Source: Myxococcota bacterium
GTDB taxonomy: Bacteria; Myxococcota_A; UBA796; GCA-2862545
Assembly (NCBI GenBank): GCA_039208735.1
Contig: JBCCQY010000028.1
Span: 1 to 64,000, forward strand
DNA: 64,000 bases
Direction: 5' to 3'
Below, one piece after another: positions 23,706 through 38,577 of this stretch. The number at the start of each line of letters is the position of its first letter. Positions within the stretch are counted from its first letter, which is position 1. The notes beneath the pieces were generated by a model. That model searched no databases and had not been told where the DNA came from. It was given only the letters and a program-made list of their open reading frames with translations. The position numbers were made by a program, and so were the translations under genes.

Positions 23706-24791
23706 TCACTCGGTTCGGGTGGTGTTTCGTTGCTGCCGACGGCGGAACACCACCGCAAGCACCTTCGCCACCGGCACGAACAAGTCGGTGGGCACCGCAT
23801 CCCCCACTTCACAACGCTTGTAGAGCGCCCGGGCGAGGGGTCGGTTTTGGATACGGGGTACCGCGGCCTTCCGGGCTTCGCTGCGGATGCGCGCCGCAAG
23901 ATGGTCGGCGCCCTTGCACAGCACCTTGGGCGCTTCGTCGTGGGCCCGGTCGTACTTGAGCGCGACCGCGAGGTGGGTGGGGTTGGTGACCACGACGTCG
24001 GCATCACGGACCGCATTGAGGCTGATGGCGAGCGCAATCTTTCGAGCGCGTTGACGACGAAATGCCTTGAACCGAGGATCTCCCTCTTGTTCCTTCTGGT
24101 CGTCCCGAAGTTCACGATCCGTTCGCTTGAGCTGCTCGAGCGTCCGCTGGTAGCTCGCGGCATAGTCGATAGCCGCGATGACGATGATGATCGGCGCCGC
24201 GGCCAAGACGGCCGACCAACCTAAGTCCACGAGCAGCTGAAGCAACTGGCCGACCGTCAGCGTCGCGGCCCGAGGCAATGCCGCGATCTTCGGCCACAAC
24301 GCGAGGAGGACGGTCGCACCAATCACCAAGATCTTCGCCACACCCTTGGCGAGCTCGAGCAAGGGGGTCCACGACAGATACGTCTGCTGAAACCCTGAAA
24401 CGACGTCGAGCCGCTCCCATTTCGGCTCCAACGCCTTGGGCGCCAGTTGCAGTCGCGACTGGGCAATGCTGGCCAGCGTCGAGGCAACAAGCGAGGCCGC
24501 CAACGGCACCGAAATGCTCAAAGCCAACAACACGAGCGCTTCATTCAGCAGCCCGTGCGCTCCGGTCAAGGTCAGGTTGTAGGGACCTTTGCCGTCGAAC
24601 CAGGTGACGGACGCCCGTACGAAGGCGTCGTGGACGGGGCCCGGGAACAACACCCACGCGGCCGCAGCCGAAATGACGACCGCCGCGGCATTGACGTCCG
24701 CCGACCGAGGCATTTGCCCCTTTTCAGCCGCCTCACGCCACTTCTTCTCACCGGGGTCGTGTTTCCGGTCACCCGCGTCCTCGTCGGCCAT
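23706..24791 (-). CDS. flhB: Flagellar export substrate-switch protein FlhB
   Basis: Four TM segments; EGDPRFK; VVVTNPTHLAVAL autocleavage motif; follows fliR. Confidence 0.92.
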   Translation of the reverse strand: MADEDAGDRKHDPGEKKWREAAEKGQMPRSADVNAAAVVISAAAAWVLFPGPVHDAFVRASVTWFDGKGPYNLTLTGAHGLLNEALVLLALSISVPLAASLVASTLASIAQSRLQLAPKALEPKWERLDVVSGFQQTYLSWTPLLELAKGVAKILVIGATVLLALWPKIAALPRAATLTVGQLLQLLVDLGWSAVLAAAPIIIVIAAIDYAASYQRTLEQLKRTDRELRDDQKEQEGDPRFKAFRRQRARKIALAISLNAVRDADVVVTNPTHLAVALKYDRAHDEAPKVLCKGADHLAARIRSEARKAAVPRIQNRPLARALYKRCEVGDAVPTDLFVPVAKVLAVVFRRRQQRNTTRTE

Positions 24792-25547
24792 CTACATCCC
24801 AAGCCAGCTTGGGAAGGCCGCGATGATCTTCTTCATCGCATCGGCATGGAGGGTGAGGATCCACGGGAGCGATAGCCAGAACAGCGTCATGCCACCGATC
24901 GTCGTCGCCGTGAGGCCGATGGAAAAGAAGACGTTCATGCGGGGGGCCAGCCGGGCGAGAATCGCCACGAGCACATTCACCACGAACACCATGGCCAACA
25001 TCGGCCCCGCGAGCTGCACTCCGAGCGTGAAGTGCCACCCCACCGTGGCGATGATGGCCTGTGGCAGGTCAGGAGACGGCGCAAGGTGACCCGGAGGCAC
25101 CTTGGTGAAGCTGTCAGCCAGCATCTGCAGGACATACAGGTGAAGGCCCATCCCCAAAAAGACCATGCCCGACAGCCACGATGCCACGGTACCCACCATC
25201 GTCGACGTTTGGACCTGCAAGGGGTCGAACATCGTGGCCATCGCGAGGCCCGTCTGCATGCTCATCAGTTCCGCAGCGAGCGACAACGACTGGAAAATCG
25301 CCCGAATGCCCAGCGTCGTCAGAAAGCCGTAGAGCACCTCCACCCCCACGAGCACGATGACCGCATCGAGGGTGGCGGGGGCGGCCGTGATGGGAAGCGT
25401 GGGCAAAATCAGTATCGTCACGCCGACGGTGACCAACACGATGGCCTGGCGGGGCGTGCCCAGCGTCGAGAAGATGGGCAGTCCCGCCACCACGGCCGCC
25501 AATCGGCTGAACGCGAGCACCAGGGTGAAGACGGCATCCGCCAGCAT
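24792..25547 (-). CDS. fliR: Flagellar export protein FliR
   Basis: Multi-TM; AAELMSMQTGLAMATMFDP; ARLAPRMNVF. Confidence 0.92.
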   Translation of the reverse strand: MLADAVFTLVLAFSRLAAVVAGLPIFSTLGTPRQAIVLVTVGVTILILPTLPITAAPATLDAVIVLVGVEVLYGFLTTLGIRAIFQSLSLAAELMSMQTGLAMATMFDPLQVQTSTMVGTVASWLSGMVFLGMGLHLYVLQMLADSFTKVPPGHLAPSPDLPQAIIATVGWHFTLGVQLAGPMLAMVFVVNVLVAILARLAPRMNVFFSIGLTATTIGGMTLFWLSLPWILTLHADAMKKIIAAFPSWLGM

Positions 25548-25550
25548 GGG

Positions 25551-25814
25551 TCAGCCGACAGGAATCGACAAGAACATTTGCTGAGCGAAGGTCACCGCGA
25601 CCTGGAGCATCCATCCGCCCGCTACGGCGACGACCAACATGGCAGCCAGAATCTTCGGAACGAAGACGAGGGTGACTTCCTGCACCTGGGTCACCGCCTG
25701 CAGCACGCTAATCACCGTACCAACCACCAAACTTGCAAGGAGCAGCGGTCCCGCCACGTAGAGCATGGCGAGCAATGCGGATTGTCCTAGGGCTACGGCC
25801 CCTTCGATGGTCAT
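25551..25814 (-). CDS. fliQ: Flagellar export protein FliQ
   Basis: SVLQAVTQVQEVTLVFVPKI motif; 87 aa. Confidence 0.95.
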   Translation of the reverse strand: MTIEGAVALGQSALLAMLYVAGPLLLASLVVGTVISVLQAVTQVQEVTLVFVPKILAAMLVVAVAGGWMLQVAVTFAQQMFLSIPVG

Positions 25815-26560
25815 CGAATGCCTCCCACCATGCCGGCAACAAGCAGCCCCCAGCCATCCATCAACACGAACACCAGCAGCTTGAAGGGCAGTGACACCAC
25901 GACGGGAGGCAACATCATCATGCCCATCCCAAGGAGGACGCTGGCCACCACGAGGTCAACCACGAGGAAGGGCAGGTAAACCTTCACGGCGATGGTGAAG
26001 GCGGTTCGCAGCTCCGACAGCACAAATCCGGTCACCACCACGGGCGTCGGAATGTCGTCGAGGGTCTCGGGACGTGCCTGTCGGGCGAGCTTCATGGCCG
26101 CAGCAAGGTCGTCTCGGGCCACATTCTTGAGCATGAACGACCGCATCGGACCCATCGCCTTGGGATAGCTCTCCTCGATCGACGCTTGCCCTGAAATGAA
26201 GGGATGAATCCCCTCAGACCACGCCTTCTGTGTCGTCGGCTGCATGACGGTCATCGTCAGCACGAGCGACAAGCCAATCAGCACCTGGTTCGGCGGAGAT
26301 TGCTGAAGGCCCAATGCCTGACGCAGCAGCGAAAACACGATGATGAATCGCGTGAACGGCGTCATGGCCAAGATGACCCCAGGCAACAGCGTCAACGCGG
26401 TGAGCGTGAGCACCAGCCGGACGCTCATCGAAGCCGCCTCGGGCGCCGCGTCGGAGGCGACGCCCACGAGCGCGTCCCCCACCGATGGCTCCGCGGCGTG
26501 CGCCGGTCCCGCGACCAGCCACACGGCGAGCATCAACCCTAAACATCGCAGTAACGGCAA
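25811..26560 (-). CDS. fliP: Flagellar export protein FliP
   Basis: FTRFIIVFSLLRQALGLQQSPPNQVL; GMMMLPPVVVSLPFKLLVFVLMDGW. Confidence 0.95.
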   Translation of the reverse strand: MPLLRCLGLMLAVWLVAGPAHAAEPSVGDALVGVASDAAPEAASMSVRLVLTLTALTLLPGVILAMTPFTRFIIVFSLLRQALGLQQSPPNQVLIGLSLVLTMTVMQPTTQKAWSEGIHPFISGQASIEESYPKAMGPMRSFMLKNVARDDLAAAMKLARQARPETLDDIPTPVVVTGFVLSELRTAFTIAVKVYLPFLVVDLVVASVLLGMGMMMLPPVVVSLPFKLLVFVLMDGWGLLVAGMVGGIR

Positions 26561-26621: not shown

Positions 26622-26987
26622 TTAGTCGGCTAGATGCTCTTCCATATCGGCCAGGAGCTGACGAGCGGGGCCCGTACGATTGTTACGAATGCACTTCTTG
26701 TAGGCCTTCCAGAGGTCGGCGAGGAAGGTGTCTTCGGTGAGCCGATGTTCATCTGGGTTCGGGTCGGTCGTGGGCAAATCGACCCCCGCGATGCACCGAC
26801 GACTGTGAAGGTTCTTCACGGCCGAGAGGAACAGTCGAACCGCTTCAGGCTCACCTCGGCGCTCCAGCTCGAGAAAAGTCTGCCAAGCCACACTCTCGGG
26901 GAGCGTGCCATCGTCCGTTCGAATCACCCGAATCTGCCGGATGAGGTCCCTCGATGTGCTCGCATCATCGACCAGCGACCGGACCAT
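26622..26987 (-). CDS. Hypothetical protein immediately upstream of fliP
   Basis: 121-aa ORF with a GGAGG RBS and ordinary globular composition. Confidence 0.6.
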   Translation of the reverse strand: MVRSLVDDASTSRDLIRQIRVIRTDDGTLPESVAWQTFLELERRGEPEAVRLFLSAVKNLHSRRCIAGVDLPTTDPNPDEHRLTEDTFLADLWKAYKKCIRNNRTGPARQLLADMEEHLAD

Positions 26988-27093
26988 GAACCCTCCATTC
27001 TCTCGTTCACACGCCTATGGCTCCACTTTTGTGGTACGCCACCCCCGCGGGGCGGGTAAGTTAACACGTTGGGGTCCAAACCCCGGAGAGTCC

Positions 27094-28338
27094 GTGATTG
27101 CCTGGCTCCTCGCCTGTGGGCCCAAAGTCGACATCGGCCCCGTCCCCGTCGAAACGTGGGCCTCCCCGGCACCCGTGGTTCACGTAAACACTACGAATGA
27201 CCCCGACATTCACCTTCTGGCAATGGTGCGGGCAGGTTCGGGGTTCGACCCTATCGGAGAAGAAGGGTTGGCCTGGCTGGTCGCCCACGCTCTGCCCGCT
27301 CCCCTCGAGGTGAGCGTCGATACCGAATGGGTCACCGCACGCCTGCGATGTCCTCGTAGCGAAGCGTCTCGCTGCATCGCAACCTTCGCCGAGGCCGTTA
27401 CAACCCCTCGCTTCGAGGACTGGTCCACGCTGCAGCAGGCCGCCCTGACGCGCATCGAAACGCCCTCTTCGTTGGCCGACGAGGTCCTTCACGCCGTGCT
27501 GTTCGAGGGCCATCGCACCGGCCACCCGGGGGCCGGGCGCTCCGGCGTGGTGCCTTCGCTCACCCCCGAGCAGGGGCAATCATTCTTCGAACAGCATTAT
27601 CGTCGAGCAACCTTCGTGGCGGGAACGGCCGGAGCCGAAGCCGAAGCCTGGGCGGACGCCCTCGCCGAGGCCCTGCTCGTCATCCCCAGCGGCCCCCCAG
27701 CCGATGCGGCCTGGATTCGACCGCCGACCTTTGCGTCGCGCGGCCTGGTCGTGCTGCCCCCCCCGGTCGACGAAGCACCGACGGACGTTCGTGCCGGCCA
27801 AGTGCTGCGCCTCGCCCCCGACCATGCCGATTGGGTGGCTCTGCACGTGGGTGTCGCCGCCCTCGACGCGCGACTCAAGACGGCGCTAGGCCAACAGGCG
27901 TTCGCAACCCTCGACGCGGGGCCAGCCAACCCCAAGGACCCCACGCGCGTGCGTCGCACAGTGACGCTTCGGGTCGGCGCCAGCGCGATTGGAAACTCGC
28001 TTGAGATGTTGGACGTGCTCGTGTCGCAGGTGGAGCGATGGCACGAACAAGGCCTTGGGGACGCCGAGTTCACACGCATCCGAGACAATCTGCCGGCGGC
28101 GTGGACCCCTCAAACGACCGAACGTGCGCTGGCGGAAGCCGTGGCGGAACACGCCGCGGGTTGGCCGTTATGGCCTGTTTCGCCTTTGTCTTCGTTGTTG
28201 CGCGGGCAAGTCGATGGGGCCATCAAACGATGGGTGTCGCCCAACCGTTTTCAACATGTGATGGCCGGCAACCCGGAAGTCACCGATGAACGTTTCGGTG
28301 ACAATGTCGTCGAACTCCCCATGGACCCGTTTCGTTGA
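27094..28338 (+). CDS. M16 (insulinase)-like lipoprotein, probably catalytically inactive
   Basis: VRAGSGFDPIGEEGLAWL where M16 proteins carry HxxEH (absent here); FFEQHYRR; GTG start after GGAG gives MIAWLLAC. Confidence 0.65.
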   Translation: MIAWLLACGPKVDIGPVPVETWASPAPVVHVNTTNDPDIHLLAMVRAGSGFDPIGEEGLAWLVAHALPAPLEVSVDTEWVTARLRCPRSEASRCIATFAEAVTTPRFEDWSTLQQAALTRIETPSSLADEVLHAVLFEGHRTGHPGAGRSGVVPSLTPEQGQSFFEQHYRRATFVAGTAGAEAEAWADALAEALLVIPSGPPADAAWIRPPTFASRGLVVLPPPVDEAPTDVRAGQVLRLAPDHADWVALHVGVAALDARLKTALGQQAFATLDAGPANPKDPTRVRRTVTLRVGASAIGNSLEMLDVLVSQVERWHEQGLGDAEFTRIRDNLPAAWTPQTTERALAEAVAEHAAGWPLWPVSPLSSLLRGQVDGAIKRWVSPNRFQHVMAGNPEVTDERFGDNVVELPMDPFR

Positions 28339-28699: not shown

Positions 28700-29302
28700 A
28701 TGCCTTCGTACCTCGACACTGACCCCCGACGTGACCGTATTCTCCAAGCCGCGCTTGTCCTCTGTCTGGAGCGCAATCCCGAGTCGGTGACCATCCAGCA
28801 GATACGCGGTCTTTCCGGCGCTTCTACCGGGAGTATTTATCACCACTTTCGCGACAAGCAGGGTCTGTTCTTTGAGTTGTTCCTGACCGCCACCCGCAAC
28901 TACCACGCGACGGTCCTTGAGGCGGTGGAGTTCGCGACGGGGCCGCGAGCGTTCGTGCGAGCCGTCGTCCGCTCCCACCTCGACTGGATGACCGAGCATA
29001 CGAGTTTGGCGAGGTTCATGCAGTCGGCTCGGCGTTCCGAACTGGTGCGAGGCGATGAGCCCGATGTCAAGGAGCAGCACCGCGACTTCGTCGATGCCGT
29101 CTGCCAGCATCTGGCCCCGTGGGTCGACGCCGAACAGATTCGTCGACTGCCGTGCGACATGACGATGGCGGTCATGCTGGGTCCCATGGAGCACTACACG
29201 GCGGAATGGCTCATGGGCCGGACGCTGACCGAACCTAGCCAGGCGTTCGGCTTGCTGTCTGAGGCAGCCTGGGAAGCGCTGCGCGTCGTTCCTTCGATTT
29301 AG
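28700..29302 (+). CDS. TetR/AcrR family transcriptional regulator
   Basis: RILQAAL...TIQQIRGLSGASTGSIYHHFRDKQGLF HTH. Confidence 0.92.
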   Translation: MPSYLDTDPRRDRILQAALVLCLERNPESVTIQQIRGLSGASTGSIYHHFRDKQGLFFELFLTATRNYHATVLEAVEFATGPRAFVRAVVRSHLDWMTEHTSLARFMQSARRSELVRGDEPDVKEQHRDFVDAVCQHLAPWVDAEQIRRLPCDMTMAVMLGPMEHYTAEWLMGRTLTEPSQAFGLLSEAAWEALRVVPSI

Positions 29303-29471: not shown

Positions 29472-30653
29472 ATGGATGCGACGCCGAGGCGGCGAGCCGT
29501 CCCCATCGAGGTCCCGTCCCCTCGCTACGTCGTGTGGGAACTCACGCTGCGCTGTGACCTCGCTTGTCGCCATTGTGGGTCTCGCGCCGGAGGAGCCCGT
29601 GAACGCGAACTCTCCCTGGCCGAGTGCCGCGACGTGGTCGACGAGCTGGTCGCCCTCGGTACGCGCGAAGTCGTGTTCATCGGGGGAGAGGCGTATCTGC
29701 ACCCTCACTGGCTCGGGGTGGTTGAACATGCCGCGGCACAGGGCCTCCGTTGTCTAATGACGACCGGCGGACGCCGATTCACGCCCGCGCTTGCCGAACG
29801 TGCGGCCGCGGCCGGTTTGGCCCAGATCAGCGTCTCCATCGACGGATTAGAGGCGACACACGACCATCTTCGGGCGATTCCGGGTAGCTTTCAGGCCGCG
29901 CTCGACACCCTCCGAAACGCGCGGGCGGCGGGAATTGGCATTACCGCCAACACCCAATTCAATCGGCTGAATCTGCCCGAACTCGAAGAGCTCGCCGACG
30001 TTCTGCTCGATGCCGGTGTTGAAGCGTGGCAAACCCAGATCACAGGTCCTATGGGACGCGCCGCGGACGGTCGGGACTGGCTTTTGCAGCCCTATGACCT
30101 GTTGGACCTCGTGCCTCGCCTGGCCGCGGTCGCACGACGCGCCAAGGACCGGGGCTGTCGGATTGTGGCCGGAAACAACCTTGGCTATTTCGGACCTTAC
30201 GAGTCGGACCTTCGCGCAGGTGGCTACTTTCAGGGCTGCGTGGCCGGGCGCTACGTGCTGGGTATCGAGTCGAACGGCGACATCAAAGGGTGTCCCTCCC
30301 TTCCGAGTGCGCCGTATGTCGGAGGCAACGTCCGCCACCGACCCCTCGCCCAGATCTGGGCCGAGTCCGAACGACTTTCCTTCACTCGGGACAATCGAAA
30401 ATCCGAGCTGTGGGGCCACTGTGCGACGTGCCACTACGCCGAGGTCTGCCAAGGCGGCTGCAGTTGGACCGCCCATACCTTGCTGGGGCGTCGCGGAAAC
30501 ATGCCGTACTGCTACCACCGCGCTGAGCAACTGAAGGCACGCGGCCTTCGCGAACGCGTCCGTCAGGTGGAACGCAGCGAACGGCGACCTTTTGATTTTG
30601 GACGCTTCGAGCTTTGTGAAGAGCCATGGGAGGATGGACATGTGGAAGTGTGA
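29472..30653 (+). CDS. Radical SAM/SPASM domain peptide/protein maturase
   Basis: VWELTLRCDLACRHC (CxxxCxxC), GGEAY, SISIDG-like segment; SPASM GCVAG...GDIKGC...CATC...CQGGC...C. Confidence 0.92.
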   Translation: MDATPRRRAVPIEVPSPRYVVWELTLRCDLACRHCGSRAGGARERELSLAECRDVVDELVALGTREVVFIGGEAYLHPHWLGVVEHAAAQGLRCLMTTGGRRFTPALAERAAAAGLAQISVSIDGLEATHDHLRAIPGSFQAALDTLRNARAAGIGITANTQFNRLNLPELEELADVLLDAGVEAWQTQITGPMGRAADGRDWLLQPYDLLDLVPRLAAVARRAKDRGCRIVAGNNLGYFGPYESDLRAGGYFQGCVAGRYVLGIESNGDIKGCPSLPSAPYVGGNVRHRPLAQIWAESERLSFTRDNRKSELWGHCATCHYAEVCQGGCSWTAHTLLGRRGNMPYCYHRAEQLKARGLRERVRQVERSERRPFDFGRFELCEEPWEDGHVEV

Positions 30654-31398
30654 GACGTGTGAGCGGCATGTGCTGCCGGTGGTGCAGGTGTGCCCCTTCT
30701 GCACGACGCTGCGGGTCGCAAGTTGGTCTACCGCAGTCGTGACGCCGATCGTGCTGTCCGCGTGCTACGGCGCCCCCCCGTGCGCCGACGACCAAGTGAC
30801 CGACCAGGACAACGATGGCTTCGTCGTGCCGCTCCCCAACCAAGCCTGTTGGCCGGCTGGTGAACCCGACTGCGACGATACCGACGCCACCGTGAATCCT
30901 GGCGCAGCAGAGATCTGCGGCGACGGCATCGACAACAACTGCGATGGCATCGAAGCCGACCCCTCTCAAATCGAAGTCTGCAATGGGCTGGACGACGACT
31001 GCGATGGAGACATCGATGAAGACGACGCCTGCAACTTCAGCGACACGGGGACCGACACCGGCCCGGATGGCCCCTCCACCGCGGCGGCCTCCATCTCCAT
31101 CGACTGGTCGAACGGCCTCACCACGTGCAGCGATGCGGGGGTTCAAACACTGACCATCGCCCTCCGTACGCAGGTCGATCAGCCGGCTTCCGTAAGCCAG
31201 GACGTCGCCTGTGCCGAGACGGTGATCGTGGAAGGGCTGCCCGAAGGAGCGTGGCTCATCGATGCCAAGGGTGAAGCGACCGATGGCCTGCGAACGTGGC
31301 AGAGCGCCTCACGAGTCATCAGCCTGACGCCCGACGAAACCGAATCTACGGGCCTCGAACTGACCTGCAGCGCCGAGGACCCCACCCACTGCGGGTGA
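30640..31398 (+). CDS. Lipoprotein with CxxC...CPFC leader, C-Y-G-A-P-P motif and MopE-related Cys/Asp repeats
   Basis: MWKCETCERHV...CPFC...IVLSACYGAPPC; DCDDTDATVNPGAAEICGDGIDNNCDG; EVCNGLDDDCDG; overlaps the rSAM stop by 14 bp. Confidence 0.75.
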   Translation: MWKCETCERHVLPVVQVCPFCTTLRVASWSTAVVTPIVLSACYGAPPCADDQVTDQDNDGFVVPLPNQACWPAGEPDCDDTDATVNPGAAEICGDGIDNNCDGIEADPSQIEVCNGLDDDCDGDIDEDDACNFSDTGTDTGPDGPSTAAASISIDWSNGLTTCSDAGVQTLTIALRTQVDQPASVSQDVACAETVIVEGLPEGAWLIDAKGEATDGLRTWQSASRVISLTPDETESTGLELTCSAEDPTHCG

Positions 31399-31528: not shown

Positions 31529-32053
31529 ATGTGGATGCTGTTGTGGAGCGCGCTCGGCTGTGGACTGGCGACGTCCCAAGATCTCTGGCTTGACGTTCAG
31601 ATCAAGGAGTCCCCCCAAATCGACGTTCACCTTCCGGCGAACTGGATGCTCGACGCAGAAGAGCCGCTCACCATCGAGACCCCAGACGGCTCCATCGACC
31701 TTCGGGACGAAGCGCGGCAGCTCAACCAGAGTCCGGTCCGAGGGTCCCGGTCCTGGACGCTCGATGAACGCACAAAGCTCACCCTCCGCGAATTGAAGCC
31801 CGGAAAGGCCAAGGCGGAACGCATTCGCGTGGGTGCCTCGGGCCCTCGTGGCTTCGGGCTGGGCATTGGTGTGCCCCTCAACCCCAACAAACTCGGTCCG
31901 GTCCGCACCGCGTTCGATGCCAACCTGGACGTTCATGGGCTCGAGGTGGACTACGGCACTGCGTTTTGCGAACAGCTCGCGCGTTCGGCGCCCACCACCC
32001 TGTTGAAGGTCACGGGTGGCAAGGGGGGCGGCTTCACCGTGGCCACCGAGTAG
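31529..32053 (+). CDS. Hypothetical lipoprotein
   Basis: GGAGG RBS; MWMLLWSALGC. Confidence 0.6.
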   Translation: MWMLLWSALGCGLATSQDLWLDVQIKESPQIDVHLPANWMLDAEEPLTIETPDGSIDLRDEARQLNQSPVRGSRSWTLDERTKLTLRELKPGKAKAERIRVGASGPRGFGLGIGVPLNPNKLGPVRTAFDANLDVHGLEVDYGTAFCEQLARSAPTTLLKVTGGKGGGFTVATE

Positions 32054-32131: not shown

Positions 32132-32953
32132 ATGAAAACCGCTCGACTCGCTACGGTTGTTCCGCTGGCCTTATTCGCGAACGCCTGCACCACGCAGGCG
32201 GTCGATGACACCATCAACTTCTCGTTCGACATCGAAATCGAGGACGTCGATTTCAACTGTGTTGAAAACGACAGTGACGTCATCGAAGACAAGGAACGGT
32301 CCATTGGCTTCACCACCACAAGCAACTACGCCTCGTTGGAATGGTGCAGGGTCGGAGGCTACTATCGAGGACCCGTCCTGAGCTTCCAGGAACTGAACGA
32401 CTCGATTCCGGGGGGCGTGCGCGAGTTCCTGTGGACGGACGTGAACGTCGTGCTCAACAGCTTCGACGTGAACATCTCCAACGTCGACACCGTCGTTCAG
32501 GGTTCGTACTTCCTGATGGGCGCCGAAACGGGCACGGAATCCGACATCCCCACCATCGAAAACGATGAATACGGCTACGACGGAGGCCTTGCCATTCCAA
32601 GCCGCCTCGCCGTCCGGTCCCGCGACGGCGCCGCAGGCACCTTGTTCGCCGCCTACACCCCGAATGCCGGTCTTTCCAAGCCCATTGCGTTGGACACCTT
32701 GGTCTCGCTGGTCGGGGGCCAGCTCACCACCGAAGTGGCGGATTCGCGCAACCTCGCCGACGTCTTCAACGCGGCCTACGCAAGCGGCGATGAAGATCTG
32801 TACGTGTTTGGGTCAGGCGTACTCGAAGTCCCCAAGACCTCGCTTCCCAAGACGCCAGGCGACATCACGATTGGGGTGGACATGACCCTCGAGTACCAGG
32901 CCAACGCCAAGATCAACCTGATCGGCGCGGCGCAGTCCCTCAACGACGAGTAG
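32132..32953 (+). CDS. Hypothetical acidic lipoprotein
   Basis: GGAGG RBS; MKTARLATVVPLALFANAC lipobox; strong GC3 codon bias. Confidence 0.7.
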   Translation: MKTARLATVVPLALFANACTTQAVDDTINFSFDIEIEDVDFNCVENDSDVIEDKERSIGFTTTSNYASLEWCRVGGYYRGPVLSFQELNDSIPGGVREFLWTDVNVVLNSFDVNISNVDTVVQGSYFLMGAETGTESDIPTIENDEYGYDGGLAIPSRLAVRSRDGAAGTLFAAYTPNAGLSKPIALDTLVSLVGGQLTTEVADSRNLADVFNAAYASGDEDLYVFGSGVLEVPKTSLPKTPGDITIGVDMTLEYQANAKINLIGAAQSLNDE

Positions 32954-36971: not shown

Positions 36972-38270
36972 TCAGCGAGCCGTGGACAATGTCCATCCCT
37001 GTGTGATGAGCGCAGGTGCATCCATCGCGCCCCACCGGTCGGTGTCATTGCAGACCTCGACCAGCTTGCCCAGCACCTCGGTGAGCTGTCCCGCGATGCG
37101 GACGTGCCGCATGGACCCCACCGCCTTGTTGGCCTCCATGACCTCGCCATGGACCACCAACGAGGCCTCTCCGGTCGCCAGATCCACGCCGGAGCAGTCC
37201 GGGAGATCGTCGACGCGAAACGAGGGACCTTGCAATTCGGCGAGCAACGCATTGACCGACCGCGTGCCGGACTTCAGCACCAGGTTGCTTGGACCGAGTT
37301 CGCCATTCATGAGATGGCCCGAAGGTCGTACGGAATGGGTCCGTGCTTCGGCGACGGTCACGAACCGGCCGTCGAGGCGACCGTCCCGCAACAGCGTCAA
37401 GGCGACAGGCGAAACCCCTCGGTCATCGAAGGCCCGCGTCGTCAATCCACCGGCGAGCAGACCATCGTCCACCAGGTGGAGCCGAGGGTCCAACGCTTGC
37501 CCTGGCGTGAGGAAGAACGCGCCCTCGGCGATGCGGGCGGCGGTGAAGCCGGGCCCGAGATGCGTGAACAACTGCGCCGTAGCTCGAGGGGTCAGCACGA
37601 CCCGGACGGGACCCTCGGGCAGCCCTTCACCGGGCTGCCGTACCACCCGAGCCCGCCGCGCGAGAAACTCGCCCAAGGGCAGGGTAGCAACTGACGAAAA
37701 TCGCCGCGAGGCAATCCGCTCGTTCAAGACGAAGTCCCCGTCAGGTGCGGTCGCGGTCGCGCTGCCCTGCACCACGAAGCGCGTGCCTGTCTCTTGCAGC
37801 GCAACGCCCCGACTGCTGGCAAACCTGCGGGTCACCTGCTCATCGCGGTAGGAGAAGGAGCCAGGCTCGAGTTCATCGGCGGCGAGCACCGACTGTCGGG
37901 CCGACTTGAGCACATCGGCGCGATGCGTCTCGCTGATGTTGGCCCGACGCGGGTCGAAGATGCCTAGCCCACCGATTTCGCGATCCTGACGCTGGACCGG
38001 TCCATCTTGCGGCGGTCCCGACTCCGCGTTGGCCAGCGCACGCTCAACGACGGCATCGTAAGCATCGGGCGCCCCCGTTGCCGTTCCCGACCGGTCGCCA
38101 TCCAACCAGACCTGGACCGTCAGGGCCTGCGAGGCGCCCGTGGAGTGGACGACCTCGTCACGCTCGAGGACCGCCGTATGCTCTTCGATCAAGGTGAGGC
38201 GTAGCTCTGCTCCCAGAACGCCGCGCGGGCGTAGGTCGGAAGCGCGGTTCGTCAGCTCGGTCAGCTCCAT
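36972..38270 (-). CDS. TldD/PmbA family protein (PmbA-like)
   Basis: DDGLLAGGLTTRAFDDRGV...LLRDGRL, PSNLVL, GVDLATGEAS; no HExxxH. Confidence 0.8.
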   Translation of the reverse strand: MELTELTNRASDLRPRGVLGAELRLTLIEEHTAVLERDEVVHSTGASQALTVQVWLDGDRSGTATGAPDAYDAVVERALANAESGPPQDGPVQRQDREIGGLGIFDPRRANISETHRADVLKSARQSVLAADELEPGSFSYRDEQVTRRFASSRGVALQETGTRFVVQGSATATAPDGDFVLNERIASRRFSSVATLPLGEFLARRARVVRQPGEGLPEGPVRVVLTPRATAQLFTHLGPGFTAARIAEGAFFLTPGQALDPRLHLVDDGLLAGGLTTRAFDDRGVSPVALTLLRDGRLDGRFVTVAEARTHSVRPSGHLMNGELGPSNLVLKSGTRSVNALLAELQGPSFRVDDLPDCSGVDLATGEASLVVHGEVMEANKAVGSMRHVRIAGQLTEVLGKLVEVCNDTDRWGAMDAPALITQGWTLSTAR

Positions 38271-38577
38271 GGCTCCTCGGGGGTCTCGTCCCGACGATAG
38301 CCGGCCCGTAGGCACGGCGTCGCGTTTCCAAGAATCCGATGGCCACGGGGGAGGCGCGGGCGCGCCGCGGAGCGTTGTTTTGCCCGCCCCCGATCCTGAT
38401 GCGAGTTCTCTCGCGGAGCAATCCGCCACTATACCAGATCCTAGCAAGCCCGGTCAGCCCTCGACCCTCTGGAAACGAGACGACCGACAACTTCCCAGGG
38501 ACTTTCGCCCTCTGCTAAAGGGGGGGCGCGGGGCATCCCCACCCTCCGGGGATCCCGACCGTTGACAGGAGCGTGTT

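Follow-up and report, generated by a model that had tools for sequence, protein, structure and literature searches.

Can a radical SAM enzyme alter the very residue by which a lipoprotein is tied to the membrane? The question is raised by two genes in a 64,000-nucleotide stretch of a Myxococcota genome, hereafter the window, in which a radical SAM/SPASM gene is followed by a gene whose product carries Cys-Tyr-Gly at a lipoprotein-type signal. The original prediction, made from the letters of the window alone, took the first gene for a splicease, an enzyme that excises tyramine at X-Tyr-Gly motifs, and the lipobox Cys of the second for the modified residue X. Its account of the layout is borne out, both ORFs lying on the plus strand with an overlap of 14 bp. 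Our sequence comparisons further show the pair to be real and conserved: a splicease-like enzyme stands beside a predicted substrate of lipoprotein type, in which the anchor Cys is the first residue of the predicted splice site.

The gene pair and its enzyme family

From its N terminus, the partner protein reads as zinc ribbon, helix, LSA-C-Y-G, acidic repeats and beta-sandwich, and Cys42-Tyr43-Gly44 is its sole Tyr-Gly (Table 1). Pfam recognises Radical_SAM and SPASM in the enzyme and two PF11617 (MopE-type) stretches in the partner, in agreement with the MopE-related repeats originally read after the CYG; the partner has no other Pfam match and none in NCBIfam. No signal peptide was seen in the enzyme, nor has it a fused zinc ribbon, and no separate Y protein gene or Nif11 leader was seen at the pair. 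Sigma-70 promoter and terminator scans gave no match.

Table 1. Coordinates of the gene pair in the window and of zinc ribbons fused to plasmid-encoded enzymes.
Feature	Position	Strand	Basis or remark
Radical SAM/SPASM gene, splicease-like, 393 aa	29472..30653	+	ORF, GGAGG before ATG, family profiles
CxxxCxxC radical SAM cluster motif (C28, C32, C35)	29553..29576	+	Conserved columns
SPASM region, seven conserved Cys (256, 274, 317, 320, 326, 330, 347)	30237..30512	+	Pfam, alignment
Predicted substrate, 252 aa	30640..31398	+	ORF, GGAGG before ATG
Zinc-ribbon leader CxxCxRH..CPFC (aa 4-21)	30649..30702	+	Likely enzyme-docking module
Lipoprotein-type signal: Arg, uncharged stretch, lipobox L39-S40-A41-C42	30703..30765	+	Own pattern
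Cys42-Tyr43-Gly44 (TGC-TAC-GGC), predicted splice site, X = lipobox Cys	30763..30771	+	
Acidic Cys-paired repeats, PF11617, best stretch aa 77-104	30781..31032	+	Low-confidence model
C-terminal beta-sandwich, aa 148-245, pLDDT about 91	31081..31374	+	Predicted model
Fused ribbon, Azospirillum plasmid enzyme	L147 aa 444-470		C-terminal
Fused ribbon, Aureibacter plasmid enzyme	L148 aa 426-447		C-terminal
Fused ribbon, Tropicibacter plasmid enzyme	L150 aa 14-41		N-terminal

In the genome, of 9.4 Mb at 92.7% completeness and 6.2% contamination, a single close copy of the enzyme and a single leader-pattern match are present. A search for other CxxC-RHV-CPFC proteins, proposed along with the original prediction, returned the window gene as the single match in the 9.4 Mb, and regex, profile and ribbon-model scans of this genome found no substrate beyond it; the next-best ribbon match (C38, 25 bits) lies at the end of an unrelated protein without Tyr-Gly. 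The pair is thus more than a chance neighbourhood, since the leader pattern is unique in the genome, Tyr follows the lipobox Cys in 1/151 ordinary lipoproteins predicted there with our own pattern, and the pairing recurs in relatives.

Around the pair, a TetR-family regulator gene (28700-29302, +) shares the enzyme's strand and lies 170 bp upstream of it. An M16-peptidase-like ORF (26905-28338, +) and a TldD/PmbA-like ORF (36972-38447, -) were recognised nearby by eye, and neither was seen within the recurring two-gene unit. Two downstream ORFs (31529-32053 and 32132-32953, +) begin like lipoproteins and match nothing in Pfam or NCBIfam, and four adjacent ORFs at 23706-26560 (-) read by eye like the flagellar export genes flhB, fliR, fliQ and fliP.

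Among NCBIfam profiles, the enzyme scores best with TIGR04103 (461.8 bits, below the cut-off of 725) and TIGR03913 (413.1 bits, below the cut-off of 591.75), the latter covered to position 395 of 477; the C-terminal extension of TIGR03913 members is absent. The next families are far lower, with TIGR04133 at 158.2, AhbD at 156.6, NirJ2 at 152.7 and PqqE at 98 bits, which leaves a gap of more than 250 bits. Scoring against three profiles had been proposed, and two of them, TIGR04103 and TIGR03913, indeed came out best, yet under their cut-offs, while TIGR04133 was weak. The suggested link to TIGR04133/TIGR04134 has to be given up: the TIGR04133 cut-off is 425 bits, and a TIGR04134 profile search of the genome gave no match while a Bacteroides control scored. 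Assignment to heme or PqqE enzymes was likewise rejected, the AhbD, NirJ2 and PqqE scores being far below those of the splicease families.

The enzyme is 45-50% identical to annotated splicease-family plasmid references, with 49.6% for an annotated Nostoc member. The myxococcote enzymes and the references agree in 87 conserved columns, among which are the ten cluster Cys (three radical SAM, seven SPASM), and in the tree these references, which are annotated family members rather than characterised PlpX or RhaX, fall within the same ingroup as the window enzyme, with the ingroup backbone open. As originally expected, profile scores and trees both group the enzyme with the splicease families and not in NirJ/AhbC/D or PqqE clades. 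A sequence search for a solved splicease structure found none, the best matches being BlsE, SkfB and PqqE. By sequence kinship, then, the enzyme is splicease-like and a member of neither curated family (TIGR04103, TIGR03913). Its clade also has residues of its own, Gly192 (Val in the other clade and the references), Phe69 and Thr97, and with such substitutions the chemistry may differ.

Recurrence in relatives and two types of precursor

Among 15 loci drawn from a genome collection, ten have an adjoining gene for ribbon, helix and L[AS]AC-YG, two have a ribbon precursor with C-terminal PYGAPP and three have no precursor. Across 151 genomes of the order, the enzyme (E<=1e-60) is found in 88 and a leader match in 68, and 67 of these 68 are among the 88. 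Examination of 100 further regions, a part of those around the order-level matches, was added to this survey. Two precursor types can be told apart: in the fused type, Tyr directly follows the lipobox Cys; the spaced type, often arrayed, has the ribbon, a textbook signal (e.g., ALVAC-GDKD) and a downstream xYG[VI][PA].

In a quick tree of the enzymes alone (108 rows, with matches shorter than 300 residues and duplicates dropped), the window enzyme falls in a clade of 37 rows (SH-aLRT 95), of which 34 have a fused precursor as neighbour, none a spaced one and three no adjacent precursor; the genomes of these three (G094, G126, G121) carry a fused-type gene elsewhere. All five rows of a second small clade have a fused neighbour, and the main spaced clade (50 rows, support 100) has none. 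A thinned tree agrees with the 108-row tree; the backbone is open, and the fused type may have had one or two origins. Tyr-Gly could have turned out unconserved in the genes beside homologs; instead, locus survey and enzyme tree agree in showing Cys-Tyr-Gly conserved there, as the original prediction had it. Neither a peptidase nor a transporter gene was found in the recurring pair in the loci inspected.

Hand-made lists for the 151 order genomes give a precursor in 46/46 genomes with a fused-type enzyme (five partial) and a fused-type enzyme in 46/52 genomes with a precursor. The other six gave no fused-type enzyme with the query used; three of them are 91-96% complete, and two of those three (G008, G027), together with G117, hold only a more distant enzyme. 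In many genomes the dedicated fused-type enzyme clade coexists with the spaced-type clade. At the level of the phylum, the leader profile matches 30 of 301 genomes; outside the order the fused CYG is present, as are Cys-Ala-Tyr-Gly and Cys-Ala-Lys-Tyr-Gly (spacers of 1 and 2). Of the top 150 cluster representatives, 133 were parsed, and in 129 of these Tyr-Gly follows the first Cys; the remaining representatives are 16 tandem generic ribbons and one unparsed. Because CYG went into building the profile, this count is circular and speaks to breadth only.

Several individual loci deserve mention. Arrays reach 14 spaced-type precursors per enzyme (L132, G015:C128; L130, G039:C333; L133, G073:C197), and several arrayed precursors end their signal in LLGADD, with no Cys, so that lipidated and non-lipidated export forms would coexist. 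Variant sites occur in L056, L084, L111 and P0237, as Cys-Tyr-Ala beside intact enzymes and as Cys-His-Gly (L111 being an orphan copy), and are natural probes of the Tyr-Gly rule. P0152, P0155 and P0156 (one named Nannocystales) have both a lipobox-CYG and a downstream KYGAPP site. Finally, L001, L004, L011 and L013-L015 are titled Enterobacteriaceae, Enterobacterales, Alphaproteobacteria or Proteobacteria; their enzymes are nested among Myxococcota, so these assemblies are likely mislabelled, and some of the enzymes are identical to order-level Myxococcota ones.

Partner homologs differ in their tails and in length (about 80 to 280 aa), which leaves the first 45-50 residues as the conserved unit. 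In the window protein, the AlphaFold model is of low confidence for residues 1-145, and the beta-sandwich that follows is weakly like pilin/adhesin domains (best E 2.5e-4) and is found only in some close homologs.

The N-terminus of the partner is a zinc-ribbon module, a point passed over by the original prediction, and this module is shared with the spaced clade, in which Tyr-Gly lies downstream of the lipobox; the leaders of the spaced type show a weak match to the C-terminal end of TIGR03913 (E 0.0046). By a ribbon profile, 3/4 splicease-like plasmid references carry the module as a fusion (21-31 bits), and the Nostoc type I enzyme does not, a likeness to be read with the caveat that such ribbons are generic and that the unrelated one in the window's genome scores 25 bits. 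In a pattern scan of 118 distinct enzymes, only those three have an in-frame ribbon, and two plasmid enzymes beside DUF1843 peptides have a C-terminal ribbon matching that of the precursor. That the ribbon belongs to the substrate in this pair and to the enzyme in other systems fits a docking or activating module, and the zinc-ribbon leader is likely a docking module for the enzyme. The helix of PlpY or of the RhaA leader is described as working when fused to the enzyme (PMC11414181).

The cysteine as lipid anchor and splice site

Does the Cys of Cys-Tyr-Gly look like a lipid anchor? The lipobox consensus is given in PMC12462473; we scored a pattern of our own (a basic residue, then an uncharged stretch, then [LVI][ASTVI][GAS]C) in 172 distinct leaders. 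These comprise 64 fused (Tyr after Cys, or at least 45 bits), 89 spaced and 19 set aside with no parsed Cys, most of which end their signal without Cys, some being incomplete or outside the filter. The fused leaders have a lipobox in 53/64 by the strict and 64/64 by the relaxed pattern (LSAC in the window), Leu at -3 in 63/64, net positive charge before the lipobox in 62/64, and Ala before the Cys in all 64 (29/29 after thinning). Hydropathy over the 15 residues before the Cys is 1.64 in the fused (n=64) and 1.49 in the spaced leaders, against 1.53 in ordinary predicted lipoproteins (n=151); the window's own h-region is modest, at 1.33 with a Pro. Departures from CYG among the 64 are Gly to Ala in two and Tyr to His in one, a Tyr count that is partly circular because the class is defined by Tyr or bit score. 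In the window partner the zinc ribbon precedes the signal, the Cys being residue 42. The host genome has four Lgt-family, two LspA and two Lnt proteins over cut-off. Lipobox pattern, hydropathy and charge together uphold the original placement of this Cys in a lipoprotein-type signal.

In the spaced precursors, Tyr-Gly stands 3 to 125 residues downstream of the lipobox Cys, which is thus retained regardless of Tyr-Gly. Residue -1 of their lipoboxes is Gly (52) or Ala (37); before X in their splice-like sites it is Pro (36) or Ala (31) and never Gly (n=86), and X is Cys in 0/116. The Leu at -3 and Cys at X of the fused type fit a lipobox, not the spaced splice sites. Since Ala is the only residue common in both the lipobox (Gly/Ala) and the splice site (Pro/Ala), this pattern suggests that both constraints act on one site in the fused type. 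The conserved Ala and Leu may also reflect shared ancestry rather than live double selection, kin not being independent.

Predicted maturation, alternatives and known systems

Some modification at Cys-Tyr-Gly is very probable on comparative grounds, and tyramine excision there is probable. The full route that we favour, cytoplasmic excision and then lipidation of the resulting keto-beta-cysteine, which would put lipid and ketoamide on one residue, is tentative, and we give it a little less than an even chance. The zinc ribbon would dock the unfolded precursor on the cytoplasmic enzyme, and, if family chemistry applies, loss of C8H9NO would turn Cys42-Tyr43-Gly44 into Cys-CO-CO-Gly. After post-translational export, Lgt would add diacylglycerol to the thiol, LspA would cut Ala41|Cys42, a bond expected to be intact after splicing, and Lnt would acylate the amine, yielding a membrane-anchored protein that starts with lipidated alpha-keto-beta-cysteine. 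Lipidation is feasible because the change made by splicing is on the C-terminal side of the Cys, with thiol and Ala|Cys bond left in place, and DAG-RiPPs are a precedent for cytoplasmic modification followed by lipidation (PMC13056109). More speculatively, a variable acidic stalk would carry the ketoamide, which would act near the membrane as an electrophile, either inhibiting proteases or offering a site of attachment. A wider and still more tentative reading is that the dedicated splicease clade makes an S-diacylglyceryl, N-acyl alpha-keto-beta-cysteine anchor as an electrophilic warhead, perhaps releasable by beta-elimination, with the ribbon as a mobile docking module. In the literature as far as it was accessible, verified splice sites are MYG, LYG and an engineered GYG, and X is Cys in none of these.

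Of the alternatives, the one that survives best, which we regard as unlikely, is that CYG is spliced but the keto-beta-cysteine is not (stably) lipidated, Lgt/LspA being blocked or the thiol or thioether eliminated, in which case splicing would work as a switch by which the anchor is held back or let go. The spliced residue is reported to have an unstable configuration at what had been the alpha-carbon and to enolise (PMC10533398), an instability that could hinder Lgt/LspA; the spliced Cys could then lose its sulfur substituent, beta-sulfur elimination from such a ketone being conceivable on chemical grounds. The same question is left open for peptides whose lipobox Cys a thiolactone may use up (PMC13056109), and a dedicated enzyme clade alongside the spaced-type clade in many genomes would suit a switch. 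However, the published reaction implies that lipobox and Ala|Cys bond would be untouched by splicing, the signal features equal those of ordinary lipoproteins, and the acidic Cys-paired cargo looks extracytoplasmic.

Other chemistry at Cys-Tyr-Gly, such as cross-linking of Cys to Tyr or a cut that is not re-ligated, with the neighbouring thiol intercepting the radical, we consider improbable. It would accommodate the invariant Cys adjoining Tyr, the separate clade with its Gly192, Phe69 and Thr97, a Gly that is not absolutely kept and scores below the family cut-offs, but it sits poorly with the 87 columns common to spaced-type and annotated splicease-family enzymes, with the continuum of spacers (0, 1, 2, 3 and more) and with lipobox-CYG and downstream KYGAPP occurring together in P0152, P0155 and P0156. 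Less probable again is a pre-Cys helix that is only an enzyme-binding leader, a signal-peptide relic, with a soluble, lipid-free spliced product: Leu -3 and Cys at X match a lipobox rather than spaced splice sites, the n-region is net positive in nearly every fused leader, and the recurring pair has no peptidase or transporter gene in the loci inspected, although leader helices are described as splicease activators (PMC11414181) and Pro is found within the last 12 leader residues in 23/64 fused vs 11/89 spaced leaders. Least likely by far, and largely refuted, is that the enzyme belongs to a TIGR04133 rSAM/lipoprotein system or to heme/PQQ biosynthesis beside an unrelated lipoprotein, since its weak scores (158, 157, 153 and 98 bits) stand against the gap of more than 250 bits to the splicease families, the absence of TIGR04134 from the genome with a positive control, and the strict pairing with Cys-Tyr precursors.

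To our knowledge, bacterial lipoproteins are all taken to share one fixed anchor, the triacylated alpha-cysteine. Should Lgt, LspA and Lnt accept a beta-keto Cys, this essential pathway would have a wider substrate range than is known, and excision followed by lipidation, if true, would supply a ketoamide displayed naturally on the membrane, as well as a short, genetically encoded tag for placing a chemical handle on a lipid anchor. The 2022 survey of spliceotide types I-V by Scott et al. in Chem reportedly found spliceases common in myxobacterial genomes. It may already list zinc-ribbon or CYG precursors, which caps our claim to novelty; our literature search, whose coverage ended short of that survey, turned up no publication in which spliceases and lipoproteins are connected. 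Spliceases have been published, and so have lipoprotein-RiPP hybrids; what appears new is their overlap on one residue, of which we found no case in the literature searched. A 2023 review (PMC9811515), in its accessible text, calls the final spliceotide products in native hosts unknown; on that point, a defined maturation route, testable in E. coli, is predicted here. Types II, III and V of spliceotides also exist (PMC11414181 supplement).

The window pair resembles the type I spliceotides PlpXY/PlpA and PcpXY/PcpA (TIGR04103, IPR026482) in its best-scoring family, in the adjacent X-Tyr-Gly precursor and in the small residue before X found at the verified PlpA3 and PcpA sites. Unlike them, it is under the cut-off, no Nif11 leader or Y protein gene was seen at the pair, and its precursor has a zinc ribbon and a lipoprotein-type signal with Cys as X. 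It shares the two-gene format with the Y-less spliceotides RhaXA, RcsXA and RasXA, and it is akin to the GDL-associated maturases of TIGR03913 (413 bits) but has no GDL/DUF1843 peptide, no C-terminal extension on the enzyme and its ribbon on the substrate; unlike in both these groups, the predicted substrate has 252 aa and carries a signal for export. As in TIGR04133/TIGR04134, a radical SAM/SPASM gene stands beside a putative lipoprotein, but the score is 158 vs 425 bits and TIGR04134 is unmatched. The DAG-RiPPs (DybA, NedA; PMC13056109) likewise combine a cytoplasmic maturase with a lipobox precursor and a predicted Lgt/LspA/Lnt route; the words "splice", "ketoamide" and "radical" are absent from the main text of that paper. 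In these systems, as described there, an MNIO is the maturase, and the motif that is modified is separate from the anchor Cys, whereas in the window pair the predicted radical SAM site coincides with the anchor residue.
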